A DNA stretch of 64,000 bases from IMG/VR virus record IMGVR_UViG_3300012983_000031, positions 156,296 through 220,295 of that record; one strand, written 5' to 3'. A program made the position numbers and the translations under genes. The stretch comes from a virus (lineage: Duplodnaviria; Caudoviricetes). Below are positions 8,064-58,667 of this stretch, one piece after another. Position 1 is the stretch's first letter. Each line of letters begins with the position of its first letter. The notes beneath the pieces were generated by a model. That model was not told the DNA's origin. It did not search any database and saw only the letters and a program-made list of their open reading frames with translations.

Positions 8064-8354
8064 TGTATTTGGTAGTTAAATCTGTTGCAAAGTTACATCG
8101 AATATTTTATATAGAAAAGAAATTGTATGATGAATGTTCAATTTCACATTTGTTAACAAACGTGTTTGCGTTCAGTAATGTCAATGACATTACTTATTTT
8201 CGATAATGTCAATGACATTACCGAACTCCAGCGAACACCACACATCTCTCATCGTATGGGTGCCACGCATTTTGTAATGTCATTGTCATTACCAAAGTTG
8301 GATAAATAGAGAGATATACAAATGTGTATATTATATAATGAGTAGAAAATAAAG

Positions 8355-8750
8355 ATGGAAACAGAGATAAGTAAATATTGGAGAACTGAGTTAGGTCGTG
8401 AGTTCAGGGCAAAGATACTTAATAAGATAGGAATGTATGCGGAGAATCTTGGAGTTCTTGACGTTCTCGATGGTAGGAAATATCATGCAAGTTTTAACTT
8501 AAGTTCAGTAATAGCAACAATAATTCCGTTGAGTATGTCATGCAACATGTCTTCACGAAAGGTTTCGTTTGTCGCTTATATAAATGTTGACGGGCATGTG
8601 AATAAGTCTGGAGAATGGATTAGGGATAATATTGAACTTTTTGATACACAGTTAAATAAAATCAATACAGATATTGTTTGTGTTAACAGCCTTTTGATAT
8701 TACTCGACTGTTTGCATACCGCTGTGCAGACAAATAAAATAATAAAATGA
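8355..8750 (+). CDS. Hypothetical protein
   Basis: 131-aa ORF directly after the triple palindrome; GATAAATA at 8301-8308 upstream. Confidence 0.7.
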   Translation: METEISKYWRTELGREFRAKILNKIGMYAENLGVLDVLDGRKYHASFNLSSVIATIIPLSMSCNMSSRKVSFVAYINVDGHVNKSGEWIRDNIELFDTQLNKINTDIVCVNSLLILLDCLHTAVQTNKIIK

Positions 8751-8756
8751 TGGCAG

Positions 8757-8813
8757 TTAACAACATTTAACACAAAATATTTTGTAGTTACATATATTAT
8801 GCTTACCTTTGCA
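8757..8813 (+). promoter_or_regulatory. Bacteroidota sigma-A promoter for the phage sigma gene
   Basis: TTAACAACATTTAAC...TTTG...TACCTTTG (-7 at 8804-8811). Confidence 0.8.
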
Positions 8814-8843
8814 GATGAATTAAAAACAAAAGCAATTTGAATT

Positions 8844-9704
8844 ATGATTATCAACAAATCTTCGGATAGTGTTTACGTCAGGGGAAGACAGGAGGTTCTT
8901 TTCAGATACCTCAACATGTTCAGAAAGTATAAGCCCCTAACTTTTGAAAAGGAGAATGAGTACATCACCAGATACAAGGTTGATGGCGATTTGAATGCAA
9001 GGGACATGCTGATTAAGTGCAACCAGCGTTTCCTTTATTCTGCTGCGAAAAGGTTTTCAAGCGATGCGGAAACCATTCTCGACCTCATTGATGAGGGAAA
9101 CCTTGGTCTTATAGAAGCCATTGAAAAATTCGATTTCACCTTTGGCGTTCGTCTTCTTTCCTACGCACAGGCGTACATATCAAGAAATATGGTGAACTAC
9201 TTCTGTAACGACAGGATGATAACTCGACCGATGGATACAAAAATCGGTAGCCGTGTTGCTAACGAACGTAATATCTTTTACAGCATCTATCAGCGTGAGC
9301 CAACTTATGATGAACTTCGTGACATCCTTTACAAGAAATATGGCATTGACGTAAAGTCAGATGATGACCTTTCACAAAACAGAGTTGTTCGCATTGATGA
9401 TCCAGTTTTTGACGGTGAAAATTCATACACGGTTGAGAACACAGATGAATATCTTAACGCAACGAACTGCTACAACGATTACGACAAGACGATAGAGCAG
9501 GACAACACAAAGGCTATTGTTCTGGCGGCGTTGAACAAGATTAACCCGAAAGAGGCTGAAATCGTGAAGATGCGATACGGTATCGGTTATGATCACGAAT
9601 ACATGCCTTGGGAGATTGCAAGCGTGTACAATGTCACTGAAACCAGAATACACCAGATTGTGGCGAAGGCAACAAAGTCGCTCGAATATGTTATGACAGC
9701 ATAA
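8844..9704 (+). CDS. Phage-encoded RNA polymerase sigma-70 family factor
   Basis: Region 1.2 (YL..F.KYKPLTFEKE), region 2 (DLIDEGNLGLIEAIEKFD...LLSYA), region 4 HTH (RYGIG...EIASVYNVTETRIHQI). Confidence 0.92.
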   Translation: MIINKSSDSVYVRGRQEVLFRYLNMFRKYKPLTFEKENEYITRYKVDGDLNARDMLIKCNQRFLYSAAKRFSSDAETILDLIDEGNLGLIEAIEKFDFTFGVRLLSYAQAYISRNMVNYFCNDRMITRPMDTKIGSRVANERNIFYSIYQREPTYDELRDILYKKYGIDVKSDDDLSQNRVVRIDDPVFDGENSYTVENTDEYLNATNCYNDYDKTIEQDNTKAIVLAALNKINPKEAEIVKMRYGIGYDHEYMPWEIASVYNVTETRIHQIVAKATKSLEYVMTA

Positions 9705-9749
9705 TGATACAATAACATAATGTTTAATAAAAAAAATACAGAAACGATT

Positions 9750-10250
9750 ATGAGTCAAAAAAACAAACAAAGCAAAAGCAAGAAGCAGTATGCGGATAAT
9801 TTTTATTATCCGTTTGTGAACCCGAACATTACTTACGGATTCTACAAGACATCGGAAGGTGATATTCGCAAGTCGAAATTCATCAAACTAAGTTTTCAAA
9901 GGAAAGATATTTATCACGCCGAAAACTCAAAGAGCGTTGTGTGCAAACTCAAATGTTACCTTTCATTTAACGTTCCAGATTTTATGGTTACGGAAATGAT
10001 GAAATTCACATCCTTTGAGGTTACAGGTGTTGCAATCTGTTCGGATGATGACACATTTGAACTTAACAAGGGAAAACTTATTGCCAGCGCAAAGGCGGAA
10101 AACGAGGCTTATCGAGTGGCAAGAAACATGTTGAAGACGATGCTCCAACAGTATGAGAACTTCCTTATTGGAGTTCGATCCCAGTTGGATATGTTTGAGT
10201 CGTTCAGCAAACATAACAACGATTTCATTGAAAGAGTTGTCGCTGAATAA
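9750..10250 (+). CDS. Hypothetical phage protein
   Basis: ORF after the sigma gene; GVAICSDDDTF...GK.IA..KAE motif. Confidence 0.75.
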   Translation: MSQKNKQSKSKKQYADNFYYPFVNPNITYGFYKTSEGDIRKSKFIKLSFQRKDIYHAENSKSVVCKLKCYLSFNVPDFMVTEMMKFTSFEVTGVAICSDDDTFELNKGKLIASAKAENEAYRVARNMLKTMLQQYENFLIGVRSQLDMFESFSKHNNDFIERVVAE

Positions 10251-11526: not shown

Positions 11527-11781
11527 GTTCATTTCAATGTCTTTTATTTTTATAAGTTGGTGGGATCGCCGAAAGGCGATCCTTTTTTTGTTGATGCCGA
11601 GGCAGAAATCTGTCGTCAGGCGTGGTTTGATAATGTCAATGACATTACTTAAATTAAGTTGATGGAAAAATATTATTGATACGTTAACATCATTTAACCA
11701 AAATAATTTGTCAGTTCAATAATAAATTTGTAACTTTGCAACATAATTCAATAAAGTATAAACCAATAAAACAAAAACAGA

Positions 11782-12015
11782 ATGAAGAAAGTTATAATCA
11801 ATGCAAGTATGGCGAATGCGCTTGATAAGATTGCAACACGGTCAAAGATGAATGACTGGTTCATAATTCACACAGATGAAGAACATAACCTGTATGTGGA
11901 TGTGGATGATGTAATAACTTTGTTTGAAGGTGCAACAGAATTTGATCTATCTGCACTTAAAAGTATTGATGTATATAATATCATCGAACTTTTTTTGCGT
12001 ATTCATAAAAATTAA
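11782..12015 (+). CDS. Hypothetical protein
   Basis: Cassette promoter (-7 at 11731-11738) and A-rich leader. Confidence 0.7.
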   Translation: MKKVIINASMANALDKIATRSKMNDWFIIHTDEEHNLYVDVDDVITLFEGATEFDLSALKSIDVYNIIELFLRIHKN

Positions 12016-16546: not shown

Positions 16547-16858
16547 GAATGAATGTGATATAAATAAGTCAAAGATCAATTAATGATGGGAAGGCTCCAC
16601 AGCGGTGGATAAAGCCTTCCCTTTTTTTTGTTGTGTATCAATAAGTTACAACAAAGATTAAGACTGAATAACGTTGACAGGGGGTACCCGCAAAGTAATG
16701 TCATTGACATTACCAGTTCTGAAATGGTTCCAAGTTGGAACCAATTAAATTCAAATTATTAACAAAATTTAACTAAAATAATTTTGCAGTTTCAAATATT
16801 GTTTGTAAATTTGCATCACGATTAAATAAAGTATAAACCAGCAAAAACAAAAATCATT

Positions 16859-20231: not shown

Positions 20232-20471
20232 CACAGGCGAACGGCACAAACACATAATAACTGGATGATCGATTTCTCGATCATCTTTTTTTGTTCAATG
20301 GCAGAATCGGCATGGGGTGCCACCCTGTCGGTAATGTCAATGACATTACCAGACCTTCATCCCGTCGTCTTGGTTCGCTCTGGAGTTCGACAAAAAAACA
20401 AAAAGTCCGATCCTGTCATCACGACAGAACCGAACCACAAAATCTAAATACTAACTAAATTATCTAACCGA

Positions 20472-21087: not shown

Positions 21088-21630
21088 TTATTTATTTCCG
21101 AAAATGTTATACAGCCTAAATTTCTGGAACCAGAAACCTTTTGGAACCATGTTCTTTCCGTACTTGTTCTTTCCGTTTTCAAGAATGTGCCGTGAAACGA
21201 TTTCACCCTGAAACGAAAGTTTATGAATTTCAAATGTGTTCTTGTAATCATAATGGTAACTGTCAATCACAATCACACCATTATCAAGAACAATCTTGAA
21301 ATCATTTGATCCGTTTATACATTTCATCACGGCATTATACAATGAGTTGTTAAACTGATCACCCTCCATCCTTAAAGGATATATCGGCTTCTCATTCTCG
21401 CCTATGTATATCGAACCAGTAATGAGAACAGGATCGTTGTACGATTTTATGTTTTCAAGAAAATCCTTGATTATATACTTTCGTTCATCATATTTCCATG
21501 CTTTGAACGCAACACCGTTCTCCAAGTCTGGAGTTCGCTGTGAATCCATGCAGAACTTGACATAACTCTCATACGATAAGTTCAAGTTCTTTGTGTCGAT
21601 TAATGTTGTTAAACTGTTTAATTTTGGCAT
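21088..21630 (-). CDS. Hypothetical protein
   Basis: Minus-strand promoter (-7 at 21655-21662). Confidence 0.75.
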   Translation of the reverse strand: MPKLNSLTTLIDTKNLNLSYESYVKFCMDSQRTPDLENGVAFKAWKYDERKYIIKDFLENIKSYNDPVLITGSIYIGENEKPIYPLRMEGDQFNNSLYNAVMKCINGSNDFKIVLDNGVIVIDSYHYDYKNTFEIHKLSFQGEIVSRHILENGKNKYGKNMVPKGFWFQKFRLYNIFGNK

Positions 21631-21822
21631 ACTGTTATGTATTTTAATCTGATGCAAAGGTACGAATTATATTATAAACTGCCAAAAAATTTTAGTTAAA
21701 AAATGTGAAAAGTTTTGAAAAAAGATCTGGAAAAAATTCTGGAAAAAGTAATGTCATTGACATTACATCGCTGGCGAACTTCACCGATGACTCATATCCG
21801 AAACCTGACAAAATGTCATAAT

Positions 21823-26515: not shown

Positions 26516-26596
26516 AATAAAAATAGGATCGAACCTGTTTCACAACAGACTCGACCCGTCAAAAAATCTAATAATTTAATACCATGAAAAACACGT
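26516..26596 (-). ncRNA. Candidate small RNA (gene-less promoter-terminator unit)
   Basis: -7 element 26599-26606, body UUUUCAUGGUAUUAAAUUAUUAGAUUUUUUG, GTGA-loop terminator 26525-26557. Confidence 0.6.
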
Positions 26597-30146: not shown

Positions 30147-30186
30147 CAGAAAAAATTCAAGAAAAAATTCAAGAAAAAATTCAAGG
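30147..30186 (+). repeat. 12-bp A-tract tandem repeat
   Basis: (AGAAAAAATTCA) x3. Confidence 0.75.
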
Positions 30187-38006: not shown

Positions 38007-38180
38007 TTATCCTTTTGAGAATATTACTGATATGTCCCCCTGTTCGTTGAATGCGTAGAGAGTCTTCGGTGATTCAGTCAGTCGGTAACGTTTGAACGCC
38101 TCACGATAATCTTCAAACTGTTCCTGTATGTTGCCGAAATCAGCGTGAAGCGTGTAACGTACATATTTTCTCTTTGCCAT
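38007..38180 (-). CDS. Small hypothetical protein (57 aa)
   Basis: MAKRKYVRYTLHADFG...; first gene after promoter (-7 at 38222-38229); below ORF-track cutoff. Confidence 0.65.
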   Translation of the reverse strand: MAKRKYVRYTLHADFGNIQEQFEDYREAFKRYRLTESPKTLYAFNEQGDISVIFSKG

Positions 38181-41776: not shown

Positions 41777-42062
41777 AATTATTCCTCCCAATAATAAATG
41801 ATTTAACTTTTTACTCTGCAAAGTTAAACATAATATTTGTAACCAGCAAATTAAATTAGTTAAACAAGGTTAACACGAACTCCAGTGAATCTTATTTAAC
41901 ATCAGTTAACGATCCAGTGATCAATGGAGTTCGCCTTCTGCGATCTGGCGGTAATGTCAATGACATTACTTGACAGGCGAGGCACTTCAGTCTTGACTGC
42001 CATCAGGATATGTTGCAACAATAAAAAAGCCGATCCTTCAATTTAGAAGAATCGGCTGTTAA

Positions 42063-44276: not shown

Positions 44277-44846
44277 ATTCGTATATGCGTTTTTTAATTA
44301 AACAATTCAGGTGCAAAGGTAAGCATAATATATGAAACCGCAAAATTATTTAAGTTAAATAGTGTTAAGCGAACTCCAGATATTTCCAAGACGAAAGATG
44401 ATTGGCTGGCAGTAAAAGGTAATGTCATTGACATTACTCACGGATCGTGAAGGCGGATTGCGATCTGCCAGTTTTTTATCTTGGAGTTCATAAAATATGC
44501 GAAATCCAGATAACAGAAATATAACCTCATCTCTTTAGCGTTCTGTAATGTCAATGACATTACTTGCCCTCAAGAAGGCGCATACATCTCTTCAGCGTGA
44601 ATAGTTGACTGATCTCTGGAGTTCGCTTATATATATTGTACCCGTTCATTTTCAAATATTATTATGAGAAAAGTTTTGCGTTAATTTTTGAGATGGTTTC
44701 CTGTAATAATCATGAAAATAATCTGAAAAAAGTTTTGGAGTTTTAACATCATTTAACCAAAATAATTTTGCCAATTAAAATATTGTCCGTACCTTTGCAC
44801 CAGATTAAGAAACAAAAGTATTAACCAACAAAAAACATTAATGATT

Positions 44847-45389: not shown

Positions 45390-45785
45390 CCATTTTGTTT
45401 TATTAATACTTCTTTTGTTGTTAGGGGGCAACGGGCTTTAAGTTCGTTCGCCCCTTTTCTTGTGTGCATAAGAACCGACAGGGGACAGAGGAGAATGGAG
45501 GCGACAGCCAAGTAATGTCACTGACATTACAGCCTGATTAAGGAGGCGAACCCAAGGCTTTGGTCAGTACCCAAGCACGAGATGTAAACAGTAAGTAATG
45601 TCACTGACATTACCGCCAGATCACAGGATGAGCAATCAGGGTTCCGTGGCGTTCGTTCAGATCAAATTATTTTCACGAATTTAACATTGTTTAACTAAAA
45701 TATTTTGGAGGTTACAAATAAAGTTCGTACCTTTGCATCAGATTAAGAAACAAACAAGTATTAACAAATTAAAACAAAATGCCTT

Positions 45786-46280
45786 ATGAAAAAGAACAAC
45801 AAGAAAATCTGGACTATCTGGGATAACAACCAGTCCTATGACGAATGGAAGGAAAATATGATTAACGATGGTTACGAAGATGAGGAACTTTCGTATGACT
45901 TCTTCTGCGATGATTTGTCAGAGCAACTTAACTGTGAACGCCTTAACCTTAATATAAATGTTGATGGGTATATCGTGGTGTTCGCAAATATGGGTTTATG
46001 GAACGGCAAACACAACGGGGCAGGAATTATCGGAACGAACGTGAAGGATATTCTTTACTCGGAATGCGACTACGTTCATTGGTATTGCGACAGGTACAAC
46101 GTTCGCTGCGATGCTGCACATCATGACGGCACAAACCACTACCTTTACCGTGTGGCAAAGGATAAGGAAACAGCGGAGAGGCTTATTGACAAAATCGTTT
46201 ATAATGGTATAACGGAAGAACAGTTTCGCAAGGCAACTCGGAGTCTGCGACCTTATATCGCAAAGGTGTACGGATGGTGA
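45786..46280 (+). CDS. Hypothetical protein
   Basis: GLWNG, HHDGTNHYLYR, VYGW motifs. Confidence 0.8.
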   Translation: MKKNNKKIWTIWDNNQSYDEWKENMINDGYEDEELSYDFFCDDLSEQLNCERLNLNINVDGYIVVFANMGLWNGKHNGAGIIGTNVKDILYSECDYVHWYCDRYNVRCDAAHHDGTNHYLYRVAKDKETAERLIDKIVYNGITEEQFRKATRSLRPYIAKVYGW

Positions 46281-46381
46281 ACGAACTCCAGCAACAGGAA
46301 TAAGGACAGTCAGAAATGACTGCCCTTTTTTTGTGACTTATTGACAAGAATGCGGATGACATCATCTCTGAGGATCAGGGA

Positions 46382-46575
46382 ATAATGTCATTGACATTAC
46401 AGACGGCGCGACGTGCATGGTCATCTCTTGGAGTTCGTTGCCAAGATAACGATAAGGATCCTTTTTCCAGGGAGTAATGTCAATGACATTACAGATGACA
46501 CGACGTGCATGGACATCTCTGCCAAGGCAACGCTAAGGATCCTTCTCGTCCTGAAAATAATGTCAGTGACATTAC
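46382..46575 (+). repeat. Degenerate tandem repeat (~85-90 bp) built on the palindrome
   Basis: palindrome-AGA.G.C.CGACGTGCATGG.CATCTCT...GCCAAG...AACG.TAAGGATCCTT twice, then a third palindrome. Confidence 0.85.
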
Positions 46576-46731
46576 CTCCAGATCACGGGACACTGCCGAA
46601 CTCCAGAGGTTGCCTTGAAATTAATTTCACCAGTTTAACGTTGTTTAACGAAAATATTTTGGTGGTTATAAATAAAGTTCGTACCTTTGCATCAGTTAAA
46701 GAAAGTATTAACTACTAAAACAAATGGCATT

Positions 46732-47142
46732 ATGAAACTAAATCAGCAGTTCAAAAACGTCTTCACTTATGCAGCAGGCATTCAAAAATGGTGCAGCGAC
46801 CAGTATGAACTTGTAGGAAAGGAACTTAAGCATTCGTTCTGCGAGGCGTTCGCAATCTGCGACTGGAACGGAACAACGCACCAAAAGTTCGACAAAATAA
46901 TCGACACCTGCAATAGGCTGCTTAATGAATACAAGGATGACTATAAGGCATTCACGGAAATCGTGGTATCTGTCAACCTACTGGCGTTCGCAAATGATCA
47001 ACTCATCAATCAGGATATTGAAGACAGGGAGGAAATCATGAATTTCTACTCAGACCTTTTTTACAAGTTGAAGGATGAGTTCTACAAGCAATATGAAAAT
47101 AACGAAGAAGCGTGTGACTACTTCTTTGAAATGACAGATTAA
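46732..47142 (+). CDS. Hypothetical protein
   Basis: Promoter -7 at 46682-46689; ends YFFEMTD. Confidence 0.8.
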   Translation: MKLNQQFKNVFTYAAGIQKWCSDQYELVGKELKHSFCEAFAICDWNGTTHQKFDKIIDTCNRLLNEYKDDYKAFTEIVVSVNLLAFANDQLINQDIEDREEIMNFYSDLFYKLKDEFYKQYENNEEACDYFFEMTD

Positions 47143-47525
47143 GGTTCAAAATAGATAGGCATTTGTAATTTTTCGTGTTAGCGTGGGGCACTTTCGTCGT
47201 GATGACGGGAGTGCTCATTTTTTATTTACATCAGGCGAACTCCAGAAATCCGACAGATCCTGATTTACCATCTCGTGATCTGTGGTAATGTCAATGACAT
47301 TACTTCAGGGGTACCCTCCTCGTAAAGTATCCGATTGATTTTCAGCAAGATAACTGGAATAAAATATGAATAAAAACCAAAAATAATTTGTGATATTTTT
47401 TGATCCAGATCTACAGGATATTCAAGAATAAAAAATGTTTTTTATTTTCACATTATTTAACGCCAAATATTTGGATATGTCATGTGAAGTTCGTACCTTT
47501 GCATAGAACTTATAAAAATAGACAA

Positions 47526-47765
47526 ATGGATAATACATTTAACATCGGTTCGATTCACTCGGTTATTCAGAATAATCCTGACGGAACACGTGACCAAGTT
47601 TACATGAAGGTCGTTCCCAAAGTGAAGCGTACATGCGTGGGTTGCTACATGTTCAGAAGGTTTCATCGCAACGTGTCTGATAGACTTTGCAGGATGTGCA
47701 TAGCCACCTACACGAAGACAGGAAACGATGTTCAGTTAGAATATGTCGAAACAAAATACCAGTAA
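47526..47765 (+). CDS. Cys-rich small protein (tandem paralog A)
   Basis: M.NTFNIG...DG...CVGCY...CRMC. Confidence 0.7.
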   Translation: MDNTFNIGSIHSVIQNNPDGTRDQVYMKVVPKVKRTCVGCYMFRRFHRNVSDRLCRMCIATYTKTGNDVQLEYVETKYQ

Positions 47766-47784
47766 CCAATAAAACATTTACATT

Positions 47785-48021
47785 ATGGAAACTTTCAACA
47801 TCGGACAGATTATTTCCTACGTTCAATCAGCGGTGGATGGTTCAAATGAAAAGATTTATCTTGAATGCGTTGAGAACAATGAAGAATCTTGCAGGGGATG
47901 CTACGTCGGCAAGCCAAGATGCAAGGCTAACAAGAAAGCAATATGCCAGAGGTGTCAGGCTACGCAGCAAGACATCGCCCAGTCCATCAAGTTCTCTCTG
48001 CATCACATACTATATGAATAA
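47785..48021 (+). CDS. Cys-rich small protein (tandem paralog B)
   Basis: METFNIG...DG...CRGCY...CQRC. Confidence 0.7.
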   Translation: METFNIGQIISYVQSAVDGSNEKIYLECVENNEESCRGCYVGKPRCKANKKAICQRCQATQQDIAQSIKFSLHHILYE

Positions 48022-48076
48022 ATTTGTTTCATACATAAATGTTAATTTTCATTTTAGTGAGTTTTTAGCGAGTGGA

Positions 48077-48112
48077 GTTCGGTTGCCTGTGACAGGTAGC
48101 CGAACTTTTTTT
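48077..48112 (+). terminator. GTGA-loop family intrinsic terminator
   Basis: GTTCGGTTGCCTGTGACAGGTAGCCGAAC + T7. Confidence 0.8.
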
Positions 48113-48448
48113 GTGGCGAACTCCAGTGATTCCTTGGGCTCGTCTTAACTTTCATTAACATAACACAGACAGGAACGCAACCGTTAATCTCAGAATCGTC
48201 AGATGCCCGACAGTAGGTAATGTCACTGACATTACAGACGGCGAAGGCGATCTGAACCTACTGCCACAACCCGCCGAGATCTTCAGATGCCTGACAGAAA
48301 GTAATGTCACTGACATTACATCCTGATCGCAGGATGTTATCATCAGGATAAGAATCGTTATACTGTTAATATTTTTTAGCATAAATAATTTTGCCAGTTC
48401 AAATATTATTCGTAACTTTGCATCATCAAAAATAAAAACAGTATAATA

Positions 48449-48640
48449 ATGGTAACAAATGAATTTAAGGTAGGTGATAAAGTCAAGTTCGGAGCATATG
48501 GATACTTCGACATGGATAAACCATATACTATTATCGAAATCAAAAACACGCTCAATATGCTTGGTGGCATCGTGTATATGCTTGAAGATGAAGACGGGCA
48601 TACTGTCACCGCATACAAAGACGAGATAGTGAAATACTAA
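48449..48640 (+). CDS. Small beta-barrel-like protein
   Basis: FKVGDKV start; consensus promoter. Confidence 0.7.
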   Translation: MVTNEFKVGDKVKFGAYGYFDMDKPYTIIEIKNTLNMLGGIVYMLEDEDGHTVTAYKDEIVKY

Positions 48641-48918
48641 TATGCCATTTAGATTTTTTGTTGGAGGCTCGCACCCATACCCTTGGGTTCGAGTCTTTTT
48701 TATGCAATTATGCGAACTCCAAGGAACCTCATCATCTCTGGGTGATCTTGTTGTAATGTCAGTGACATTACTTGATGGACGACGGATCCAATCCTTGGTT
48801 AGCATAGGCTTGCTACATTTAGTTAAATAATGTAAACACAATGAAGAAATATGGATATTCGTTTTGTTATTTCAAATATTATTCGTACCTTTGTACCGAA
48901 TTAAAAAACTATATAGCA

Positions 48919-49233
48919 ATGGGTTTATATAAGAATAATAAGTCAGCAAAGGTCGGCACTGAAATTGAGTGCCCAGTTTGTCATAAAAGATTTATCAAAA
49001 AGTCTTATCAACAAGCCTTTTGCTGTAAGGATTGCAAAGAGAAATTTTGGAATCGCACAAGAAAGTCCAATGGATATTTCCGTAGGTACAATGCTGAACA
49101 CCCAGAAAGATTGGAACGAGTAGGAATCAATACTGAAATGGATGCAAACTTATGCTTGGGTGATGATGAGTGTGAAAGCCTTGCACAAATTACATTAGAT
49201 GAAAGTTGTAAATATGATAATTGTTTCTTCTAA
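48919..49233 (+). CDS. Zinc-finger protein
   Basis: ECPVCHKRF....QAFCCKDC. Confidence 0.75.
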   Translation: MGLYKNNKSAKVGTEIECPVCHKRFIKKSYQQAFCCKDCKEKFWNRTRKSNGYFRRYNAEHPERLERVGINTEMDANLCLGDDECESLAQITLDESCKYDNCFF

Positions 49234-49549
49234 AATATTTTAATGAAATAAACCCATAGGGACTATATATACTTCGTTACAGGGTTGGGTTCGGTTGTAC
49301 ATCGCAACTGAACCTTTCTTTTTTATTCTGACAACGAGTACAATCGCACGCGTCGCCCATCAGGTAATGTCAATGACATTACCTCCTGATCGCGAGATGG
49401 TAAATCAGGATCTGTCGGATTCACTGGAGTTCGTTAAATAATGTTAAACACATTCATTTTGTCGGGAAATCCTTTGGATATGTCACAGGAAACCACTAAC
49501 TTTGTACCACAATTCAAAAGAGTATTAACCAATTAAAAAACAAAGCATT

Positions 49550-49735
49550 ATGAAAAAGGTAAACATTCAAGTGACACTTAACATTGTCGCCATTGTCGAA
49601 GATAGTTATGAGGATGCAGGTGTAGATAACATCTTAGATTGCATCGAAATCACAGCCAACGGAGATGAAGAATTTGTCAAAGTCGAATCATGCGAAATTG
49701 AAAATTTCCACTCAACTGATGTTGAAAAGTATTAA
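49550..49735 (+). CDS. Small acidic protein
   Basis: Promoter and leader upstream. Confidence 0.7.
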   Translation: MKKVNIQVTLNIVAIVEDSYEDAGVDNILDCIEITANGDEEFVKVESCEIENFHSTDVEKY

Positions 49736-49755
49736 CCAATTAAAAAACAAAAAAT

Positions 49756-50145
49756 ATGAAAAAGGAGTATTACTTAATCAACGTAATCGGCAAGGATGGA
49801 TATTCGTTTGTCGTATATGGATGCTTTAAGGATGATGAAGATGCTATTGAACAGGCACAAAAACGTTCCTTGTTCCAAGACGAAGAAGATGCGGACAGGG
49901 CTTGTGCGGAAATTGCATCGGATGAAGATGTAAGGCATTTCAGAGAGTGTGAATGCCTCTTTGACTTGACCAGCGGATCGAAGACAGTTTCAGTCGAGTT
50001 CTACTATGAGAACGGACAGTACGGAATCTATGCAGCAGGCAGCAGCGACAGCGGAATTACAGTCAATGGAAACACACCAGAAGAATGTGCGAAAAATTTC
50101 TATCCGTATCTCAAAGATTATCTGACAAATTTATGCAGGATATAA
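49756..50145 (+). CDS. Hypothetical protein
   Basis: Own copy of the GTATTAACCAATTAAAAA leader. Confidence 0.75.
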   Translation: MKKEYYLINVIGKDGYSFVVYGCFKDDEDAIEQAQKRSLFQDEEDADRACAEIASDEDVRHFRECECLFDLTSGSKTVSVEFYYENGQYGIYAAGSSDSGITVNGNTPEECAKNFYPYLKDYLTNLCRI

Positions 50146-50274
50146 TCCGAAAATTTTCTTGACATTTTTTAACAAAAAAAGTTGGAAAAAAATTTGGATA
50201 TTATTTTGAAAGTTCGTAACTTTGCATCATCAAACAAACAACAATAGTATTAACCAACAAAAAACTAAAACATT

Positions 50275-50538
50275 ATGGCACGTAAAATTTTCTCTAACGG
50301 ATGTTTCGCAGAAGCACACGAAATCATCATCAACGGCAAAAAGCAATGGCGTTGGGTAGTTACATCTTTCGAGGATGACACGTTTGAAAACGGCGAGAAC
50401 ATCATCGTGAACGAAAAGGGCAAAAAGGAAGAAGACCTTTTCCCACAGGAAGACGAACCTACAATCGAGGAAAACATCGACTACTTGCTTAATGATGACC
50501 TCTATGCAGGAATAACAGAATTTGAAGACAGATATTAA
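50275..50538 (+). CDS. Small acidic protein
   Basis: Consensus promoter (-7 at ~50217). Confidence 0.75.
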   Translation: MARKIFSNGCFAEAHEIIINGKKQWRWVVTSFEDDTFENGENIIVNEKGKKEEDLFPQEDEPTIEENIDYLLNDDLYAGITEFEDRY

Positions 50539-50795
50539 AAGATAGTTTCTTTCTCTGCTCATAATTTTACTTCGGCAGGTGCTCGGACTGAAAAGTTCGG
50601 GCACTCGCTTTTTTGTGGCGAACAACCCAGTTATACGTGGATCCGTCGCCAGTCAAGTAATGTCACTGACATTACACACCAGATCACCAGCGGGAATGGA
50701 TCCATCAAGGTGGAGTTTGTACACACAAAAAATGTTCGGCGAACTTCACAGCCAGCCGAACACAACTCAAATTTTCAAACTTAAATTATTCAAAA

Positions 50796-50954
50796 TCAAT
50801 CATCTATACAATAATCTTGTCGAATATCCTGTCGTAAATTGCGACAACCAGTTTCAATCGAACCATTATCTGATGTGCAGGTAGCACCGTATTGCATCAC
50901 ACGCAGTATTGCACCCATTAGACCAGACTTTCCTGTACATCCTTTTGTTTTCAT
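50796..50954 (-). CDS. Small hypothetical protein
   Basis: Promoter -7 at 50982-50989; terminator ~50727-50762. Confidence 0.6.
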   Translation of the reverse strand: MKTKGCTGKSGLMGAILRVMQYGATCTSDNGSIETGCRNLRQDIRQDYCIDD

Positions 50955-51404
50955 ACTGTTATATGTTTTTGTAATTCGGTACAAAGTTACGGCTTTTATT
51001 TGAAACAACCAAACGTTAAAACGTTAAAATACGTTAAACGAATGCAATGATAACATTCTTTAGCATATACGTTAAACTCAGGTTCATCGACGCATATCCT
51101 GATAGTAATGTCAATGACATTACATCCTGATCACAAGATGGTAACATCAGGATTATACTGATAAGCATTGAAGTCCCTTGAGGAGGATACAGCAAAGGAA
51201 TGTCAATGACATTACACCAGCTCACGACGGGTTTGCTGATCCATCTTCTGGAGTTCGGCGAACTTCATATGCAACCGAACCCACCATATAAAATTACGAT
51301 ATTCAAATTATCTTTGTTAAAGAAATCACTTTAACACATCGCTGACCATACGTACCCGACATACGTGACCGATTCATAACAGCTCCGTAATGTCAGTGAC
51401 ATTA

Positions 51405-51734
51405 CTACTGGGGTGCCTCCTCTTCAGACACTGCGGAGAAAAACGGATTGTACTTAAGTGACTTGATGATGTTTTCAAGATACAGGCACTCGTCCAAGAA
51501 TCCATTCACCTCATCATGTGACAGACTGAACCATTCGTTACTGACCCTCGACATCGCATGACGAGCGTGAAGCATCTTCTCCATACGGAACGGGTGGCTT
51601 GTCCTGTGGTGAGCGACCATGCTAATTTCGTTGGCGTTGCCTGTCTGCAACTTCTTTATACGACCTTCGATAGACCCTCTCGTCACGCCTATCTTGTAAT
51701 ACTCGCCATCCGTTAGAAGATAAACATATCCCAT
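51405..51734 (-). CDS. T5orf172/GIY-YIG-superfamily nuclease-like protein
   Basis: GYVYLL...YKIGVT....RIKKLQTGN...EKMLH...EWF. Confidence 0.85.
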   Translation of the reverse strand: MGYVYLLTDGEYYKIGVTRGSIEGRIKKLQTGNANEISMVAHHRTSHPFRMEKMLHARHAMSRVSNEWFSLSHDEVNGFLDECLYLENIIKSLKYNPFFSAVSEEEAPQ

Positions 51735-52200
51735 GTAATTATTGAGGTTGCTTTTTGAGTTCGCACTATTTATTCGAGTCGATAGTTCTCTGGAGATCGT
51801 CATCATAATGTCAGTGACATTACTTCGGATTATCCAGCTGGAAAATTCAGGAATAATTCTTCGTAAAAATCTTGGAAAAAAGTTGATAAAAAAGCTGAAG
51901 CTTTTTCCAAAAATAAATATAAGGGTGATTGCGGATAATCACCCGAATTTCTTTTCTGTTTTTTCATAATTGTTTTTGGAGAGTGGATGTGGTTCGAGAG
52001 GATAGCATCCATTTTTCGTCAATGGGACTCTGATGGCAGGTTTGCTTTTCAGGCTGTAATGTCAACGACATTACCTGACGACCGACGAGATTGAGCGGTG
52101 TTAAATACCTGTCGGTTGTGAACAAAAAAAATCAAGAGCGAACTTCACAGCCAGCCCTTGATGCTCAATAACCTAAATACTATGATAGAAAAAAAAGATA

Positions 52201-52611
52201 CTACGCAATCGATTTAACTCTGCCCTCATACGCCTTGACTATCTTTGCCAATTCCGCATCACAGGCATCGTACAATTCATCATAATCATCGTACTCATTC
52301 CGCAGTTCATCAAACCTGTTTACAAAATCTTGCGGTTCTCCGTCAATTTCCTTGTAGTACACAATCTCGAATCCGTCATAGTCGAACGACAATGTGTACG
52401 CATATTCAAGGTTGAACCAACCCTTGCAGAGTTTAACGAAGAACTCTGGTGCTTTACGTTGTGTGTAAGCGAACACAAGAAGAATGTTATCAGCCTCACG
52501 CTTTAATTTGAATGAATCAAGATTACCTACGAAATCAGCGGTAGTCATCATCCTGTCGATGTTTGCTGGTGTTCCAACAAATGCAATCACGCTGCTAATG
52601 GTCGCTGACAT
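52201..52611 (-). CDS. Hypothetical protein
   Basis: Promoter -7 at 52658-52665. Confidence 0.75.
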   Translation of the reverse strand: MSATISSVIAFVGTPANIDRMMTTADFVGNLDSFKLKREADNILLVFAYTQRKAPEFFVKLCKGWFNLEYAYTLSFDYDGFEIVYYKEIDGEPQDFVNRFDELRNEYDDYDELYDACDAELAKIVKAYEGRVKSIA

Positions 52612-53388
52612 AATTCCATTAAGTTTTAATTGGTTAATACTTCCTTTAATTATGGTACAAAGTTACTATTTTTCGCTGACCCTACCAAATAAAACGCAAA
52701 CAAATTTAAGGTCATTAACAAACTTTAACGAACTACATTGGAATGCTCATACGCCCGTGAAGGCGTTGAAGTAATGTCAGTGACATTACCTGACGCTATT
52801 GTTACCTTCTTTTGCAAATCATTGATTATCAATACGTTATATACATTTTTACATCTCATTTTCGTGATAAGATAGATACGGTGCTAACCAGAAAGTTAAT
52901 ACATTAATTTACCTGTTCCATCTGAACACTCATTAGTTGTAACAGGAGTTGTTCGAGTCTGTCGCGGGAAGTAATGTCACTGACATTACCGAACGATCTC
53001 CCGCAGGTTTTCTTAGGAAACTTATGAAAAAAAATCCAAGAAAAATACACAAGAAAAGTTGAGATTTTTTTCAGTAAAAATTTCAAGAAAAATCTTGGAA
53101 AAAATACAAGGAATACAATGAACTCATCTTGGCTTCCTCACAGCATTGTAATGTCAATGACATTACTCAGCTCGGAACTGTGCAGATTGGCTGCACAGTA
53201 ATACCTGGTACTCAGCAAGACATAGTAATTACCATCGCGTGATCTGGTGGTAATGTCACTGACATTATATCCCGATCAGGATCGATCGACAGGCATCGAT
53301 GGTCTTCTCTTGGGTTCGCTTGACACAAGCAAAAAGGACACCGAACTTATGTCCGATGTCCTACCGACTTTTGCGGCATTACTGCCGA

Positions 53389-53856
53389 TTATTGATATGC
53401 TTTCCTGTACAATGCCCAATATACTGACAACGTGTCGTTTAATGATATGTTAGACGGAAGCATAGGGTACACCTCATTCTTAATGATGATTGTTGCAAAA
53501 TCTCCGCTAACCTGCACGCTCCGAACTGCAACAACTTTGTGGCGATAAAGGATTCTCGGCATTTCAACATCCGATTCAAATTTAAGTGTGGACGATTCCC
53601 CATCATTGACACCGAACCTGTTTACAAGACCGATTATCTCATTTACAATATCATCCTGCATATCGTTGATTTCCTCAAAATACACGCAGGGCTGCTTCTT
53701 CACGTTCACTACCTTTATATCCTTTTCGGGATAGTAGTTCACACCCACCTTGCAGAACGTTCCGTTTTCGTTCGTGATGATGTCGGTGATTACACCTTCA
53801 TCCAGATAGAGATTGCACTTTGCAATTACACTCATTCCAATTTCCAAATTCTTCAT
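53389..53856 (-). CDS. Hypothetical protein
   Basis: Promoter -7 at 53903-53910 and consensus leader. Confidence 0.75.
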   Translation of the reverse strand: MKNLEIGMSVIAKCNLYLDEGVITDIITNENGTFCKVGVNYYPEKDIKVVNVKKQPCVYFEEINDMQDDIVNEIIGLVNRFGVNDGESSTLKFESDVEMPRILYRHKVVAVRSVQVSGDFATIIIKNEVYPMLPSNISLNDTLSVYWALYRKAYQ

Positions 53857-54351
53857 AATTCCATTTGTTTTTTGTTGGTTAATACTCTTTTGAATTGTGG
53901 TACAAAGTTAGTGAATTTTTATGGCATATCCAAAGGATTTAACGACAAAATGAAGGTATTTAACATTATTTAACAAACGGTATAAACAGAAGAGAAAGGA
54001 TGTGCCAGCCGAGTAATGTCATCGACATTACATCCTGAACCCGCACGTGTGGAGCGGCTCACCAAGGGATTCCGTGAAGCGTCATCATAATGTCAGTGAC
54101 ATTACATCCTGAACTGCTGCTGTATCCTCTCTTGACGAGAAGGTTCATGCGACAACCCAATCTACGGCAGCACAATCGTCTGCCTTGTACAGTTGTTAAT
54201 GTCAGTGACATTATTGGATCGGCAAGATAGCGAGGATTAACTCGTGTCGTGCGCAGATAAATATTTGGAATCGAGATCCATCGCGGCGAAGTTAATGTCA
54301 GTTACATTACCGCCAGATCACGGGATTCCTTCTGCTGGAAAGAATTATACA

Positions 54352-54447
54352 AAAAAATCAGCGGCTACCCTCACGAGCAACCGCTGACAAAAAATGTTGA
54401 TATGAGCAAAATAAAAATCCCTTAATTCATTATTCTTTTTAATTGTG
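54352..54447 (-). ncRNA. Candidate small RNA (gene-less promoter-terminator unit)
   Basis: -7 element 54451-54458; only ATG-AAT-TAA mini-ORF; body GGGAUUUUUAUUUUGCUCAUAUCAACAUUUUUUG; GTGA-loop terminator 54358-54387. Confidence 0.6.
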
Positions 54448-54914
54448 ATACAAAGTTACGGATTTCCTATGACATATACAAGAAAAACACAAACGAAATT
54501 AAGGTCATTAACAAACTTTAACGCACAGCATTGACCACCGAAATCTTCAGATGCCCGACAGCAGGTAATGTCAGTGACATTACTCAGCTCTCAGTTTCGA
54601 GTTGATTTCCATCACCGATTTCTCGTAAAAAACTTCCAAGAAAATCTCGGAAAAAAATCAAAAAAGTTTCAAGAAAAATTTCCAAGAAAAAAATGGAAAA
54701 ATTCATGCGGAAAAATCCAAAGTAATGTCGCTGACATTAAACGCTGGAAAGTATAGCAGAAGTCACTGTCCAAGCAAACAGAACGCAACAGGAGGTAATG
54801 TCGCTGACATTACAAGACGACCGAATAGGGCGGATACTAATCCGTCCTTACACAAAAAATGGGATTGCCCCTTGCGGAACAATCCCACGAAACAATTCTT
54901 ACATATATGAAAAC

Positions 54915-55469
54915 CTAACTAATCTCATAATCTTCTCCGTCAAAACTGATGGACACGATATTGTCAAAATCCACGTTGTTGGGGATAATCTGCTTGCCGA
55001 CCAACAGGCCTGCCTCGCTCTGCTTTGCAGATTCCTTGTGTTCGGGACTATATTCTTTAATGCTTTCCAACTCGCTATCGGTTGCAGGCCGTCCGTCCAC
55101 GAAATAAGAGTAACGAGTGGCGACACCATTCTTCACATAGCAACGTACATACAACTTGCCGTTGTGCTCGATAACTTTGCCCTTTACGAGCCAGGACCCC
55201 CATTTCAGACCCTCGCTCTCAAAAGTTGCAGTAGAGCCGTCAGCCACAAGTGCTTCATTCACTCTCTTCTCATAAGAGCCGCCAAAATCATAGGTGCTCT
55301 CCGCTTCTTTCTCAACTAAATGGTCAGCGACCCACGAACTGCCTTCCTTATGGTAGAAAGGGTTGTTCGTCTTATTCATCTTTGCCTCAGAACGGCTGAT
55401 GATGGTTAATTCCTCAGTTGTGGTGCTTTCAAGCAACTTTACCAAATCATTCTTACTGATAGTTTTCAT
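54915..55469 (-). CDS. Hypothetical phage protein
   Basis: KMNKTNNPF...Y..RVN...WG.W...HNGK.Y motifs. Confidence 0.8.
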   Translation of the reverse strand: MKTISKNDLVKLLESTTTEELTIISRSEAKMNKTNNPFYHKEGSSWVADHLVEKEAESTYDFGGSYEKRVNEALVADGSTATFESEGLKWGSWLVKGKVIEHNGKLYVRCYVKNGVATRYSYFVDGRPATDSELESIKEYSPEHKESAKQSEAGLLVGKQIIPNNVDFDNIVSISFDGEDYEIS

Positions 55470-55858
55470 AATTGTAAGTGGTTTAAGTTAATACTATTGT
55501 TTCCTAAATCTGTTGCAAAGTTACGGAAAATATTTGATATAAACAAGGCCTGAGGGCAACTTTTTTAAGCCATTTAACATTTTTTAACAATCTGTACGGC
55601 AGACCACTCCGCCGTGTCGGACAGTGGTGTAATGTCATTGACATTACTCGCCGATCACGAGATGGAAGACGACCTTATCTTCCAACGAATCGCTACCTTT
55701 ACTTAATTCCAAGACAACCAGTTTGGATCGCTCTGTAATGTCACCGACATTACTCTGGACGAGAAGCAGAAGTACCTGTCGGAGTACCTGCCACAAAAAA
55801 GTTGAGGCTCGCATCACTGCGAACCCCAACCACAAATTATCCCAAAATAAAGATTCCT

Positions 55859-56071
55859 TTACAAATTTGATAGCATCCACACCACCGCTGCGACTATCAG
55901 CACCACTATTAAAATCCAGAACAAGCCAGAGCAGATGCTTACTAATGCGGCAAATATACCCTCCACCGAAATACCGAACAACCAAAACAACTCTTTCAGA
56001 ACGAACCACAACATAGGCAGAACGAACACCAAGAGAAAGAGGCAGATGAATGTCTTAAATAAAAATTTCAT
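55859..56071 (-). CDS. Small membrane protein
   Basis: Almost entirely hydrophobic; promoter at ~56099. Confidence 0.7.
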   Translation of the reverse strand: MKFLFKTFICLFLLVFVLPMLWFVLKELFWLFGISVEGIFAALVSICSGLFWILIVVLIVAAVVWMLSNL

Positions 56072-56506
56072 ATCAGTTACATTTATTGGTTGATGTTGCA
56101 AAGTTACGGCTTTTTTCTGACACCGCAAAATTTTCAGTGTTAAAAAAATTAAACAACCGAAATTTTTTTTCACACGAACAACCCAAATCTCAGAAGGGCT
56201 TCACAATAATGTCACCGACATTACTCACTGGAAAAAACAACCCCTCGGTTGCCGAAGCCACCTCTATGAAGGCGGTCAATCTTACGGGCATAATGTCAGT
56301 GACATTACCCGATGGAAAAAAGGTTCCTTAGCGTTGCCTTAACGAGAGATGTTCATGCACGTCGCGCCGTCTGTAATGTCACTGACATTACTCCCTGGAA
56401 AACCAACAAGTCTTGTCTTCAGCACACGTTCAATGAACAAAAAAGTTCGGCTACCCTCACGGGCGACCGAACTCCGAATAACCTAAAACCTATTATGCGT
56501 AAATGT

Positions 56507-56668
56507 CTATATCTTCTTTATGTCAAGCGGACACTCCGACAACACGTTTAATGCCTTTCCGCACTTTCCGCAGATGTAAGTAGGCATCCAATCCGACAAA
56601 CTGCCGTATTTCGCTGACCGCTTGGTGTAAAAGGGGCAACCCCTTGATATGCAGATGCTCTTTAACAT
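56507..56668 (-). CDS. Small Cys-rich protein
   Basis: C....CP...CGKCG...CP; promoter at ~56696. Confidence 0.6.
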   Translation of the reverse strand: MLKSICISRGCPFYTKRSAKYGSLSDWMPTYICGKCGKALNVLSECPLDIKKI

Positions 56669-57208
56669 ATATCCTTGTCTTTTTGTTTTATAGTGCAAAG
56701 TTACGGCTTTTCCGTGACATACCGAAATTTTCCGTGTTAAAAAAACTTAAACCGCAAAACTTTTTTTCACGCAGCACGGCAACGCAGCAGTGCCTCCGCC
56801 TGCCAAGTAATGTCAGCGACATTACGAAGCAATGTCCATCGATTTCCGCCATTGGACATGGAAGCCAATGAGATGCTCATCAACCCGTGAACCAATCCAA
56901 GTAATGTCATCGACATTACGAAGCAATGTCCCCGCTTTTTCCGCCATTAAGAAAATTATTTATGTCAAAAATTGTTAAATAGGTGTTAAGAAACGTGAAC
57001 AAGGATTTTAACATTTTTTACGTTAAGGAATTTTGCCATATCAAATTTTTTTCGTATGTCTGTATATACGATGACATCAAACCGTGAACCTCTCAAAGTA
57101 ATGTCAGTGACATTACACAAGGGCAAGCACGAGCACGAACGTCGTTGTCAGCAAAAAAAAAGGCGACCCGCTTGGGTTCGCCATTAAATACAAGATTAAA
57201 AAATACTC

Positions 57209-57442
57209 TTACTCACCGAATATGTCGGAACTTAATTCATCGAGCAAGTCCGACACGTCATCGAGCCATCCGCTCCTCGCAAGCGTTCCCAACGCAGCCA
57301 TAGGGAAGAATATCAGCGAGAATCCAAGCAGAGGACTGATGCTGAATGTGCTGTCAGCCGCTATGATGCCGAACATGAACACCAAAACCATTAAAAGCAT
57401 TACCAGCAACTTGAAACTTTTATACAACATAAGTGCGTGCAT
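57209..57442 (-). CDS. Small two-TM membrane protein
   Basis: Two hydrophobic helices, acidic tail; promoter -7 at ~57484. Confidence 0.7.
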   Translation of the reverse strand: MHALMLYKSFKLLVMLLMVLVFMFGIIAADSTFSISPLLGFSLIFFPMAALGTLARSGWLDDVSDLLDELSSDIFGE

Positions 57443-58667
57443 AAGAATCTACTTTTTTAGTTAAACTATTTATGTTATCTTATGCAAAGTTACGAACTTC
57501 ATGGCAAACACGCAATAGGTAAATTCCTATTTCACAAATATTAACATAAGGATGCGGCAGAACAGCAAGAATCTTGATGCTGTAAGTAATGTCAGTGACA
57601 TTATGTAAGCAAAAATGATGACTTTGCTTACACACTTTTGAAAAACCTCGGAACTTTTTTTGCAAGAGGTGTCATTTTGATAGGTGAACTGCAATTTTTG
57701 CTTACAATATGTCAAAACGCACGTTTATACGCCGAAAACGCTGGGCAACAGGGGGTAATGTCAGTGACATTATCACCAGATCACCCAGAAACACCCCTAA
57801 ATGACCAATATTTGATGGCATATATGGAAGGTATATGATATATGGTGCCTACGCATATCATGCCAAAAACATTATCAAATTCAGCACGTGCGGACATATT
57901 TTATATCTGATAACGAAATCGTCACCGAAGAATTTTTATTGCGATACGGAAAGGAATGCGGAAAGGGATACGGAAGTTCGTTCGGAAATACGTACTGATT
58001 CTGCTACCGAAAGTGTTAACAAATGTTAAACGGAAATTGATACTACTCCAAGCAAACAGAAGTAAACGGTAGGTAATGTCAATGACATTACTGAAGCTGC
58101 AAAGACGACGCGATTCAGTAGAGGGGGTTCTGAATTGGCTCAGAAACGGACCTTGGAAAGGGGCCGATTTTTTGGGTTCGGGAGAGGGGGACCGAGGGGG
58201 ACCTTTGATCCCGTAAGCGAACTCCAGGAATCAGATTAAAATTAATTCTATTATTTTTCCCCCACTTTTCCCCACTAAGTATCGAACTCCAGTAATTACT
58301 TATGTTCTTATATTTTTGGATCTTCAACATTATTAATAATGTTGTAATATTTTTTCAAGATAATTTAGAATTATTTCTTGTGTTCGTTATCATGTATTAT
58401 TTTTTGTATTTCAGTTAATTATCTGTCATTTTAATATTTTTTTTCTTTATTGTATATCATTCTTGTGTTGAAATATATTATTTTTCTTTTCAGAGATCGA
58501 ACTCCAGGAATTGGTTAGTTATAGTTGTTTATCTATTCGTTCGAACTCCAGTTGTTTATTGTTTGTTCACATATTTTTTTTCATGTTTTGCTTAAAAAGT
58601 CATTTATTTATTTTTCTATATGGATTAAAAGTAGTATCTTTGCGTCGCGAATTAATTTTTGTTTATT

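Follow-up and report, generated by a model that had tools for sequence, protein, structure and literature searches.

Lineage-specific 19-bp palindromes at transcription-unit boundaries in one 50-kb domain of a large Bacteroidota phage

KorB/OB of plasmid RK2 and ParB/parS exert global repression at a distance through palindromic sites that are dispersed over a replicon, with tens to hundreds of bp between site and promoter, and matS/MatP, SBS/SlmA and NBS/Noc use ~20-70 sites over hundreds of kb in the organisation of cellular chromosomes or in division control. In T4-type phages, the promoter-early stem-loop (PeSL) is promoter and terminator itself. The stoperators of Cluster A phages are ~13 bp long, asymmetric, oriented with transcription and bound by the monomeric repressor of a temperate phage. 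In this system the sites and the specificity of the immunity repressors co-evolve, and an elongation block downstream of initiation has been proposed (PMC6550527, PMC9283540). Cluster O mycobacteriophages carry 17-bp dyad repeats (TGTTCGGnnnCCGAACA) whose function is still unknown (PMC4351075). The present analysis deals with a 19-bp palindrome (PAL) that is repeated 62 times in a window of 64,000 nucleotides, which forms the terminal part (positions 156,296 to 220,295) of the 220,295-bp IMG/VR virus record IMGVR_UViG_3300012983_000031 (CheckV completeness estimate ~60%). All copies stand in one domain (8175..58091, without strand), where they mark the boundaries between transcription units. 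What is new here is the presence of palindromes of the same geometry at matching positions in syntenic relatives, each lineage having its own site sequence.

The gene content of the record (tail sheath, baseplate and head genes, together with an anaerobic NrdD) is that of a myovirus, the sheath protein of which shares 43% identity with its counterpart in the Prevotella Lak megaphages, its nearest named phages. To our knowledge, hardly anything has been established about how such large phages of Bacteroidota, distantly related to the Lak group, time the expression of their early genes.

A discrete palindrome confined to one domain

The palindrome (GTAATGTCA-n-TGACATTAC) was sought with the pattern GTAATGTCAnTGACATTAC, two mismatches at most being allowed, and the copies were characterized by mismatch count and half-site profile. 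The 62 copies in the window comprise 39 exact matches, 19 with one mismatch and four with two, while 100 dinucleotide shuffles of the window returned no match at all. An initial annotation, made from the letters of the window, had counted about 62 copies between 8175 and 58091 and none elsewhere in the window; the starts recovered here, from 8175 to 58073, are identical, and the absence extends to the whole record, in which all copies fall at 164.4-214.4 kb (50 kb of 220 kb) and the remaining ~170 kb has none under the same mismatch limit. The even genome-wide spread that the annotation named as the outcome speaking against its proposal is thus not what was found. Copies with three or four mismatches do not occur anywhere in the record, so that no decayed copies are seen, and the seven isolated half-sites beyond the block were judged, by estimate, to be compatible with chance. 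The spacing is overall about one PAL per 0.3-1.6 kb, with 22 copies in 8175-43368 versus 40 in the 13.7 kb of 44419-58091. Every copy is intergenic; the few overlaps with open reading frame (ORF) calls concern ORFs that are short or on the opposite strand and that include promoters or terminators as well. A tandem-repeat search found no long unit repeat around the palindromes.

Outside the record, a 22-kb megablast search against INPHARED gave no match, the exact 19-mer was absent from IMG/VR, and neither the PAL motif nor those of the relatives was found in the literature searched. In the JGI metagenomes the exact 19-mer occurs in 13 contigs, one copy each, which are unrelated to the phage except for a single 30-bp match at one PAL copy. 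Among the matches listed for GTDB genomes, the 17-mer core is present as single copies, mostly within long ORFs and taxonomically scattered. Such single, scattered occurrences argue against a common host operator, which the annotation had counted among the outcomes that would speak against its proposal and which is not detectable in the metagenome or GTDB matches listed.

The anatomy of the site is simple. Positions -8 to -2 of the half-site (TAATGTC) are invariant in 123-124 of the 124 half-sites, G stands at -9 in 87% of them and A at -1 in 94%, whereas the centre base is unconstrained (A 23, G 14, T 13, C 12), a profile that agrees with the near-invariant arms and variable centre noted earlier. 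The geometry is therefore 9-1-9, that is, two 9-bp half-sites (G-TAATGTC-A) whose centres are 10 bp apart, approximately one helical turn. Information beyond ±9 is nearly nil, and this sharp edge indicates that PAL is a self-contained element of 19 bp and does not belong to some longer repeat. The centre base and the flanks have no strand bias, and the site is symmetric and orientation-free. Moreover, the variant copies of the window carry mostly changes in a single arm without compensation in the partner arm, which, together with the sharp boundary, points to recognition by a dimeric sequence-specific protein and not to a hairpin. The flank profile shows no T-run after PAL and no conserved start region or start-site signal, so that PAL is no terminator and is unlikely to be a hairpin promoter of the N4 type; in the latter case, symmetric arms would also fire both ways.

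Part of the copies have a weak outer arm, GATCWG, 3 bp beyond the core, which brings the dyad to ~37 bp. In 20 of the 124 half-flanks a GATC begins exactly 9 bp outside the core, compared to ~0.6 expected from its intergenic density, and CWG starts 6 bp outside it in 35 of the 124. Methylation of these GATC sequences could modulate binding. EcoRI-type and D12-class (Dam-like) adenine methyltransferases are encoded at 0-156 kb of the record (L005-L013).

Where neighbouring palindromes are separated by less than 260 bp, they show helical phasing (R=0.65 at 10.5-10.6 bp, mean phase ~0, Rayleigh p ~2e-5), which persists after homologous spacers are collapsed to 23 families (R=0.62, p ~1.4e-4). Inter-PAL spacers of ~64 nt (36680-36744, 45531-45594, 46401-46556, 56309-56372) form families that are met again, with orientation reversed, in the + strand and the - strand arm of the PAL-dense region. 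They are not tRNAs, since a tRNA search found none; Rfam gave three sub-threshold matches only. The Bacteroidetes small RNA FopS was matched at 26517-26594 on the - strand, also below threshold (37.4 bits against a gathering value of 56, E 0.068).

Unit boundaries, promoter regimes and relatives

Between 8 and 44 kb, the typical order is gene stop, intrinsic terminator, 37-54 bp, PAL, 35-90 bp, a TTAAC pair and the -7 box. A survey of the gaps upstream of promoters found PAL in 23 of the 27 that measure at least 150 bp and in one of the 15 shorter ones as scored, the latter figure being understated because at least one promoter (11731) has its PAL masked by a spurious ORF call; in the same count, promoters placed directly behind the preceding gene have none. 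The survey thereby bears out the earlier description of one copy between a terminator and the next promoter up to ~44 kb. From the centre of the promoter-proximal PAL to the -7 box there are 95-134 bp in 16 of 24 cases, with clusters near 102-116 and 124-134 bp. A typical boundary module on the + strand (11563..11785) consists of a terminator (11563-11589), PAL (11630-11648), tandem TTAAC (11684-11698), the -7 box TAACTTTGCA (11731-11740) and the ATG at 11782. A module of the longer spacing class on the - strand (41817..42056) has its terminator at 42023-42056, PAL at 41951-41969, an inverted TTAAC pair at 41886-41910, the promoter TTAAC pair at 41850-41873 and the -7 box at 41817-41826. An extra inverted TTAAC copy of this kind occurs in some gaps and gives the longer distance from PAL to promoter (~132-134 bp, not ~102-116 bp).

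At the convergent strand junction (20264..20440, without strand), a + strand terminator (20264-20292) is followed by PAL (20331-20349) and by a - strand terminator-like hairpin with an A-run (~20391-20433), and there is no promoter nearby. At the divergent one (44312..44799, without strand), PALs 44419 and 44545 lie between a - strand promoter (-7 box 44312-44321) and a + strand promoter (-7 box 44790-44799). The gap pattern, the promoterless PAL at 20331 and the divergent pair at 44419/44545 identify the palindrome as a boundary marker and not as a promoter element. The annotation had placed copies at every strand switch; this stands for 20331 and 44419/44545, and the further examples (50657 and 57586-58073) sit amid uncertain gene calls. 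The stretch of 44-58 kb has cassettes of one small gene each, separated by gaps with two to five PALs. At the left edge of the domain, the triple cluster reported by the annotation was seen again (PALs 8175, 8203 and 8274; 8175..8292, without strand), and the relatives have one to three copies there. It is located between a leftward host-type promoter (-7 box 8086-8095) and a phage-type promoter motif, GATAAATAG (8301-8309), right behind the third PAL and just upstream of a sigma factor operon; at the same junction the relatives carry GATAAATAGGTATGATATA plus a host-type promoter. A 64-amino-acid (aa) ORF divergent from this cluster was considered and rejected, for it is not conserved in the relatives.

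The domain also coincides with one of two promoter regimes. About 50 promoters with the Bacteroidota -7 box (TAnnTTTG; here TA[AC]CTTTGCA) serve many small cassettes in the 50-kb block, and nearly every host-type promoter has a tandem TTAACn5TTAAC ~33 bp upstream of the -7 box (window 8757-59410; for example 16759-16773). In the record, 46 of the 51 TA[AC]CTTTGCA boxes and 53 of the 54 TTAACn5TTAAC elements are found at 140-220 kb, the latter elements more precisely at 160-220 kb, while 42 of the 43 GATAAATA motifs are found at 0-170 kb, with the structural and replication genes. Host-type promoters being confined to the PAL side and GATAAATA to the other, the PAL domain corresponds to the arm read from host-type promoters, and this would be the early arm.

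Some further sequence features were noted. TTAACn5TTAAC may serve as an UP-like element or be bound by a second factor. Periodic A-tract repeats of 12-13 bp (TTCTGGAAAAAA-like) lie upstream of several promoters (21708-21749, 30119-30185, 35821-35866, 54650-54691). The 10-mer CGAACTCCAG/CTGGAGTTCG has 41 copies in the record, with an enrichment between the genes of the domain (for example 8222-8231 and 20372-20381); four copies lie in the gene-free 0.5 kb to the right of the last PAL (58218-58550), and the 10-mer is also found inside the 64-aa ORF (7869-8063).

Relatives were found through homologues of the sigma factor (55-60% identical) and then as syntenic metagenome contigs. The eight distinct syntenic relatives display four site types, all of which keep the 9-1-9 geometry with a sequence proper to each lineage: TTAATCTCAnTGAGATTAA in L161, L168, L169, L170 and L173; in L163 and L174 the TTAATCTCAnTGAGATTAA type again, position -4 being in part G or T; GTTATYTCAnTGARATAAC in L159 and L172; and TTAATTTCAnTGAAATTAA in L166. 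Common to all lineages are T-8, A-6, T-5, T-3, C-2 and A-1, and the lineage-specific positions are -9, -7 and -4. The relatives have about one site per kb, none to the left of the sigma operon, and share the order terminator-PAL-promoter; the syntenic gaps that contain sites are those upstream of the operon of the 131-aa protein and the sigma factor, behind a 102-aa gene, behind a 140-aa gene, and on both sides of GP88. CCAGGAT/ATCCTGG is the outer-arm sequence of the relatives. Between the L159 type and the TTAATCTCA type the site differs although the sigma factors are 85% identical, which means that site specificity changes quickly.

Two of these relatives are informative on how the arms are read. 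In L172, 18 of the 22 sites are made of a C-type and a T-type half, in either order, and only three are homotypic, so that the site is effectively asymmetric; in L174, halves with C, G and T are mixed. These heterotypic sites indicate that each half is read on its own, through its sequence, in the manner of a dimeric protein. A screen for columns specific to L159, intended to reveal covariation, was not discriminating. Other candidate relatives were set aside: those derived from the tail sheath and belonging to the structural region (L014-L024, G001/G002) have 0-1 site, like the structural part of this genome, and the Lak-B2 megaphage lacks the palindrome family.

Readings of the array

The dyad geometry, the independent arms and the lineage-specific sites at constant geometry and positions are the features of an operator array for a dimeric protein. 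We regard it as fairly probable that the PAL set is such an array, the protein being probably phage-encoded and acting at the boundaries of early transcription units as a roadblock, an insulator, a loop anchor or a block silencer. The site anatomy, the confinement to one domain, the conserved geometry and position with lineage-specific sequence, and the phasing are observations; the binding of a protein, its encoder and the direction of its effect are inferences. In this model, putative dimers would be bound in the gaps between early units, 37-54 bp past the terminator, where, acting as roadblocks or insulators, they could halt read-through from one cassette to the next. They could also bridge neighbouring, helically phased sites, so that production of the protein would switch the whole host-transcribed arm, the sigma operon included, or turn it off in one piece. 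The annotation had already assigned the dyads to a dimeric DNA-binding protein, and the symmetry, the sharp edges, the uncompensated arms and the lineage versions speak for that part of its proposal. Its further idea, that the protein coats the whole domain and thereby compacts, tethers or shields it, finds less support: discrete sites at unit boundaries fit boundary, roadblock or looping control better. A bolder version, which we put forward only tentatively, is that a clade of Bacteroidota jumbo phages might encode a protein of unrecognised fold that docks at every early-unit boundary, partitions the arm into insulated loops by bridging helically phased sites and switches 50 kb, the sigma operon included, as a block, the fast divergence of site and protein specificity between lineages preventing cross-regulation among co-infecting relatives.

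Several observations weigh against an operator array. A PAL can form a hairpin, with an 8-9-bp stem, a 3-nt loop, energies of -6.9 to -9.4 kcal/mol and z of about -3.3 to -4.6. Lying ~100 bp or more from the -7 box, it cannot occlude RNA polymerase, and any effect on initiation would need looping or spreading. Some PAL pairs of the relatives are ~48 bp apart (4.5 turns), so that phasing is not universal. In addition, no evident binder was recovered. The 98 ORFs of the window yielded no helix-turn-helix (HTH), ribbon-helix-helix or ParB family with Pfam, PHROGs and NCBIfam, nor did such a family appear among the 25 families that each output lists for 97 other ORFs of the record with 55-330 aa (Pfam, PHROGs) or among the 25 listed for the record's 59 smallest ORFs outside the window (Pfam); the annotation, too, had seen no obvious cognate protein in the window. 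Whole-record searches for ParB_N and HTH_3 were negative, PF02195 (ParB_N) giving no match at E<=1 in 220 kb while control genomes were matched. PDB profile searches with four conserved small families returned nothing, and the models of the two best positional candidates (the 131-aa and 176-aa proteins described below) contain no DNA-binding fold. Two candidates were discarded: Y1_Tnp (PF01797) scored 14.9 bits, below its cut-off and with a stop inside, and WYL_2 is only a 93-aa stand-alone domain in the structural region. Since the record is ~60% complete, the binder may be encoded in the part that is missing, or else the host may supply it. The putative binder would most likely be phage-encoded, with a fold that current family libraries do not recognise.

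An alternative view is that PAL works as a nucleic-acid structure, either an RNA hairpin involved in stability, processing or termination, or a DNA cruciform or hairpin of the kind found in N4-type promoters, priming sites or origins. Every copy can be folded with an 8-9-bp stem, dyad symmetry is kept in all lineages, and a position just past the terminators would place PAL inside read-through transcripts. However, there is no compensatory variation within any genome, the variants altering one arm; seven of the 22 sites of L172 would have a mid-stem C-A mismatch on the transcribed strand, and the mixture of C, G and T halves in L174 goes in the same direction. The flanks lack a T-run, a start site or any other conserved signal, the canonical terminators are separate elements 37-54 bp upstream, and the same element serves convergent and divergent junctions regardless of strand. 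We therefore hold this explanation to be quite unlikely. The same low probability is given to a site for a host factor, namely an operator of a host regulator, a nucleoid protein or a defence sensor, of which the phage would carry many copies in order to recruit or titrate that protein. Such a role would agree with the lack of a phage binder in the available 60% of the genome and with the match between the PAL domain and the part read by host RNA polymerase. The 17-mer core, however, is not enriched in any taxon among the GTDB matches listed, where it is single and mostly within long ORFs, and a switch of site between phages with 85% identical sigma factors is the usual mark of a specificity encoded by the phage, one that host regulators seldom show.

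Recombination had been brought up by the annotation, in the form of crossover points for cassette shuffling. Cassettes could be inverted, exchanged or inserted at PALs, by a site-specific enzyme or through short homology aided by an annealing protein, and the comparison of the window with L173 does reveal cassettes that were inverted or moved, with PALs at the junctions. The genes of a 180-aa protein and of a DUF1281_C protein lie on the - strand beyond PAL 20331/21748 and are rearranged with respect to L173; the order terminator-PAL-terminator at 20331 is that expected from an inversion between two PALs; a gene of the T5orf172 nuclease family is placed exactly between two PALs; and the 176-aa protein has weak Rad52-like fold matches (E 0.04, from a low-confidence model). 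Nevertheless, with PALs at nearly every boundary, any rearrangement that preserves cassettes ends at them. The window yielded no family of integrases, resolvases or Y1 transposases, and in the record as a whole none passed its cut-off. Tyrosine recombinases have overlaps of 6-8 bp and serine recombinases of 2 bp, which the 1-bp centre of PAL does not resemble; neither this centre nor the 98 ORFs of the window, with no integrase or resolvase among them, suit an integron attC site or a recombination core. The site positions are syntenic over ~10 kb among relatives, a sign of stability and not of churning, and recombination alone leaves the helical phasing, the strict invariance and the lack of decayed copies unexplained. 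As a primary role it is, in our estimation, unlikely; given the PALs at rearrangement junctions, they may, as a side effect, be incidental crossover points. Less probable still, to the point of being very improbable, is a selfish repeat without function for the phage, similar to repetitive extragenic palindromes (REPs), bacterial interspersed mosaic elements or miniature inverted-repeat transposable elements and spread by a dedicated transposase. The copies are indeed intergenic, located after terminators, clustered with regular spacing and lineage-specific in sequence. Yet no Y1/RAYT transposase was above threshold in the record (14.9 bits, internal stop), flanking homology and target duplications are absent, positions are syntenic in diverged relatives and decayed copies are lacking. 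Moreover, PAL is a perfect palindrome without the GTAG/CGTC tag or the asymmetry of REPs (PMC3733652).

The genes placed at or near the sites complete the picture. The first operon of the domain (8355..10250, + strand) contains the sigma factor gene; it is conserved in all relatives and forms the left boundary of the PAL domain. It consists of a 131-aa ORF (8355-8750, + strand), always just upstream of the phage sigma gene, the sigma-70-family factor itself (8844-9704, + strand; family scan) and, downstream of it, a basic 176-aa ORF (9720-10250, + strand). The AlphaFold2 model of the 131-aa protein, with a predicted local distance difference test score (pLDDT) of 82, shows a helix, six strands and a helix. 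It has no convincing match in the PDB: a likeness to Crl, the sigma-S assembly factor, suggested by weak Foldseek matches, was not supported by VIA-align (best Z 4.7). The protein may be a partner of the sigma factor. The model of the 176-aa protein is of low confidence (pLDDT 64) and has a beta sheet and a long C-terminal helix; its top fold matches, weak ones, are to the RAD52 N-terminal domain (E 0.04), and the homologue search returned one near-identical (99%) sequence only. On this modelled fold, it may be a single-strand annealing protein.

The 180-aa basic ORF (21088-21630, - strand), with PAL 21748 upstream of it (region 21088..21766), has homologues in the relatives that evolve fast and are flanked on both sides by clusters of two to three PALs. 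It is a positional candidate for the binder; an Atlas search with it was uninformative. The T5orf172/MUG113 gene (GIY-YIG superfamily, 133 aa; 51405-51806, - strand) is bracketed exactly by the PALs at 51387-51405 and 51805-51823, its start overlapping PAL 51805 and its stop PAL 51387. A conserved 57-aa gene at 38007-38180 of the window adjoins a HicA toxin gene in two relatives, and HicA genes lie inside the PAL domain at L173:16214-16408 and L174:18781-18975. Just to the left of the sigma operon, L166 carries an IS607-like pair (2447-5104), composed of a serine recombinase with MerR/HTH and a Cas12f/TnpB-like protein.

Comparison with known systems

The arm transcribed by the host bears one invariant site at the boundaries of its units, and the four site types at syntenic positions provide an experimental handle that could reveal a new family of DNA-binding proteins. 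Should PALs act as roadblocks or loop anchors, they would be compact, orthogonal insulator parts for Bacteroides and Prevotella genetics. If the bolder model of a rapidly diverging boundary protein were true, the system would be a lytic-phage counterpart of immunity specificity as well as a prokaryotic-virus analogue of insulator elements.

With the PeSLs of T4-type phages, the PAL domain has in common small early cassettes with their own promoter and terminator, repeated border DNA and modular shuffling. Unlike PeSL, PAL is a separate, invariant 19-bp element between terminator and promoter. The likeness to matS, SBS and NBS lies in short palindromes that delimit one domain, dimer-bound in those systems; their sites, in contrast to PAL, have no link to gaps between terminators and promoters, and no homologous binder was detected in the phage. 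KorB/OB resembles PAL in having palindromic sites over a replicon at variable distances from promoters. The sequence of PAL is not known to be related to OB/parS-type sites, and, in contrast to both KorB/OB and ParB/parS, the available record has no ParB_N-domain gene, the copies are far more numerous and they occupy one arm only.

Stoperators and PALs alike are short sites spread by the dozen through transcription units with a lineage-dependent specificity, and for both the proposed action is a block of elongation, later than initiation. PAL departs from them in being symmetric, orientation-free and positioned after intrinsic terminators, with neither the asymmetry nor the orientation of a stoperator, and the phage that carries it differs from Cluster A in that no repressor or lysogeny genes were seen. 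Together with the stoperators, the Cluster O repeats come closest to PAL: like PAL, they exceed 30 copies per genome, have invariant arms inverted around a variable centre, become denser toward one end of the genome and lie mostly off promoters. A dimeric binder is predicted for both, and in neither case is the phage obviously temperate. The Cluster O geometry is 7-3-7, with another sequence, as opposed to 9-1-9, and about a third of its copies lie within or near coding sequence (PMC4351075), whereas all PALs are intergenic and tied to the gaps between terminators and promoters. In addition, the PAL array of this jumbo phage stays within a single promoter regime of 50 kb, and versions of its site proper to each lineage are documented. 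If PALs prove to be roadblocks or loop anchors, they would offer a functional answer for the dyad repeats of other phages, those of Cluster O among them.

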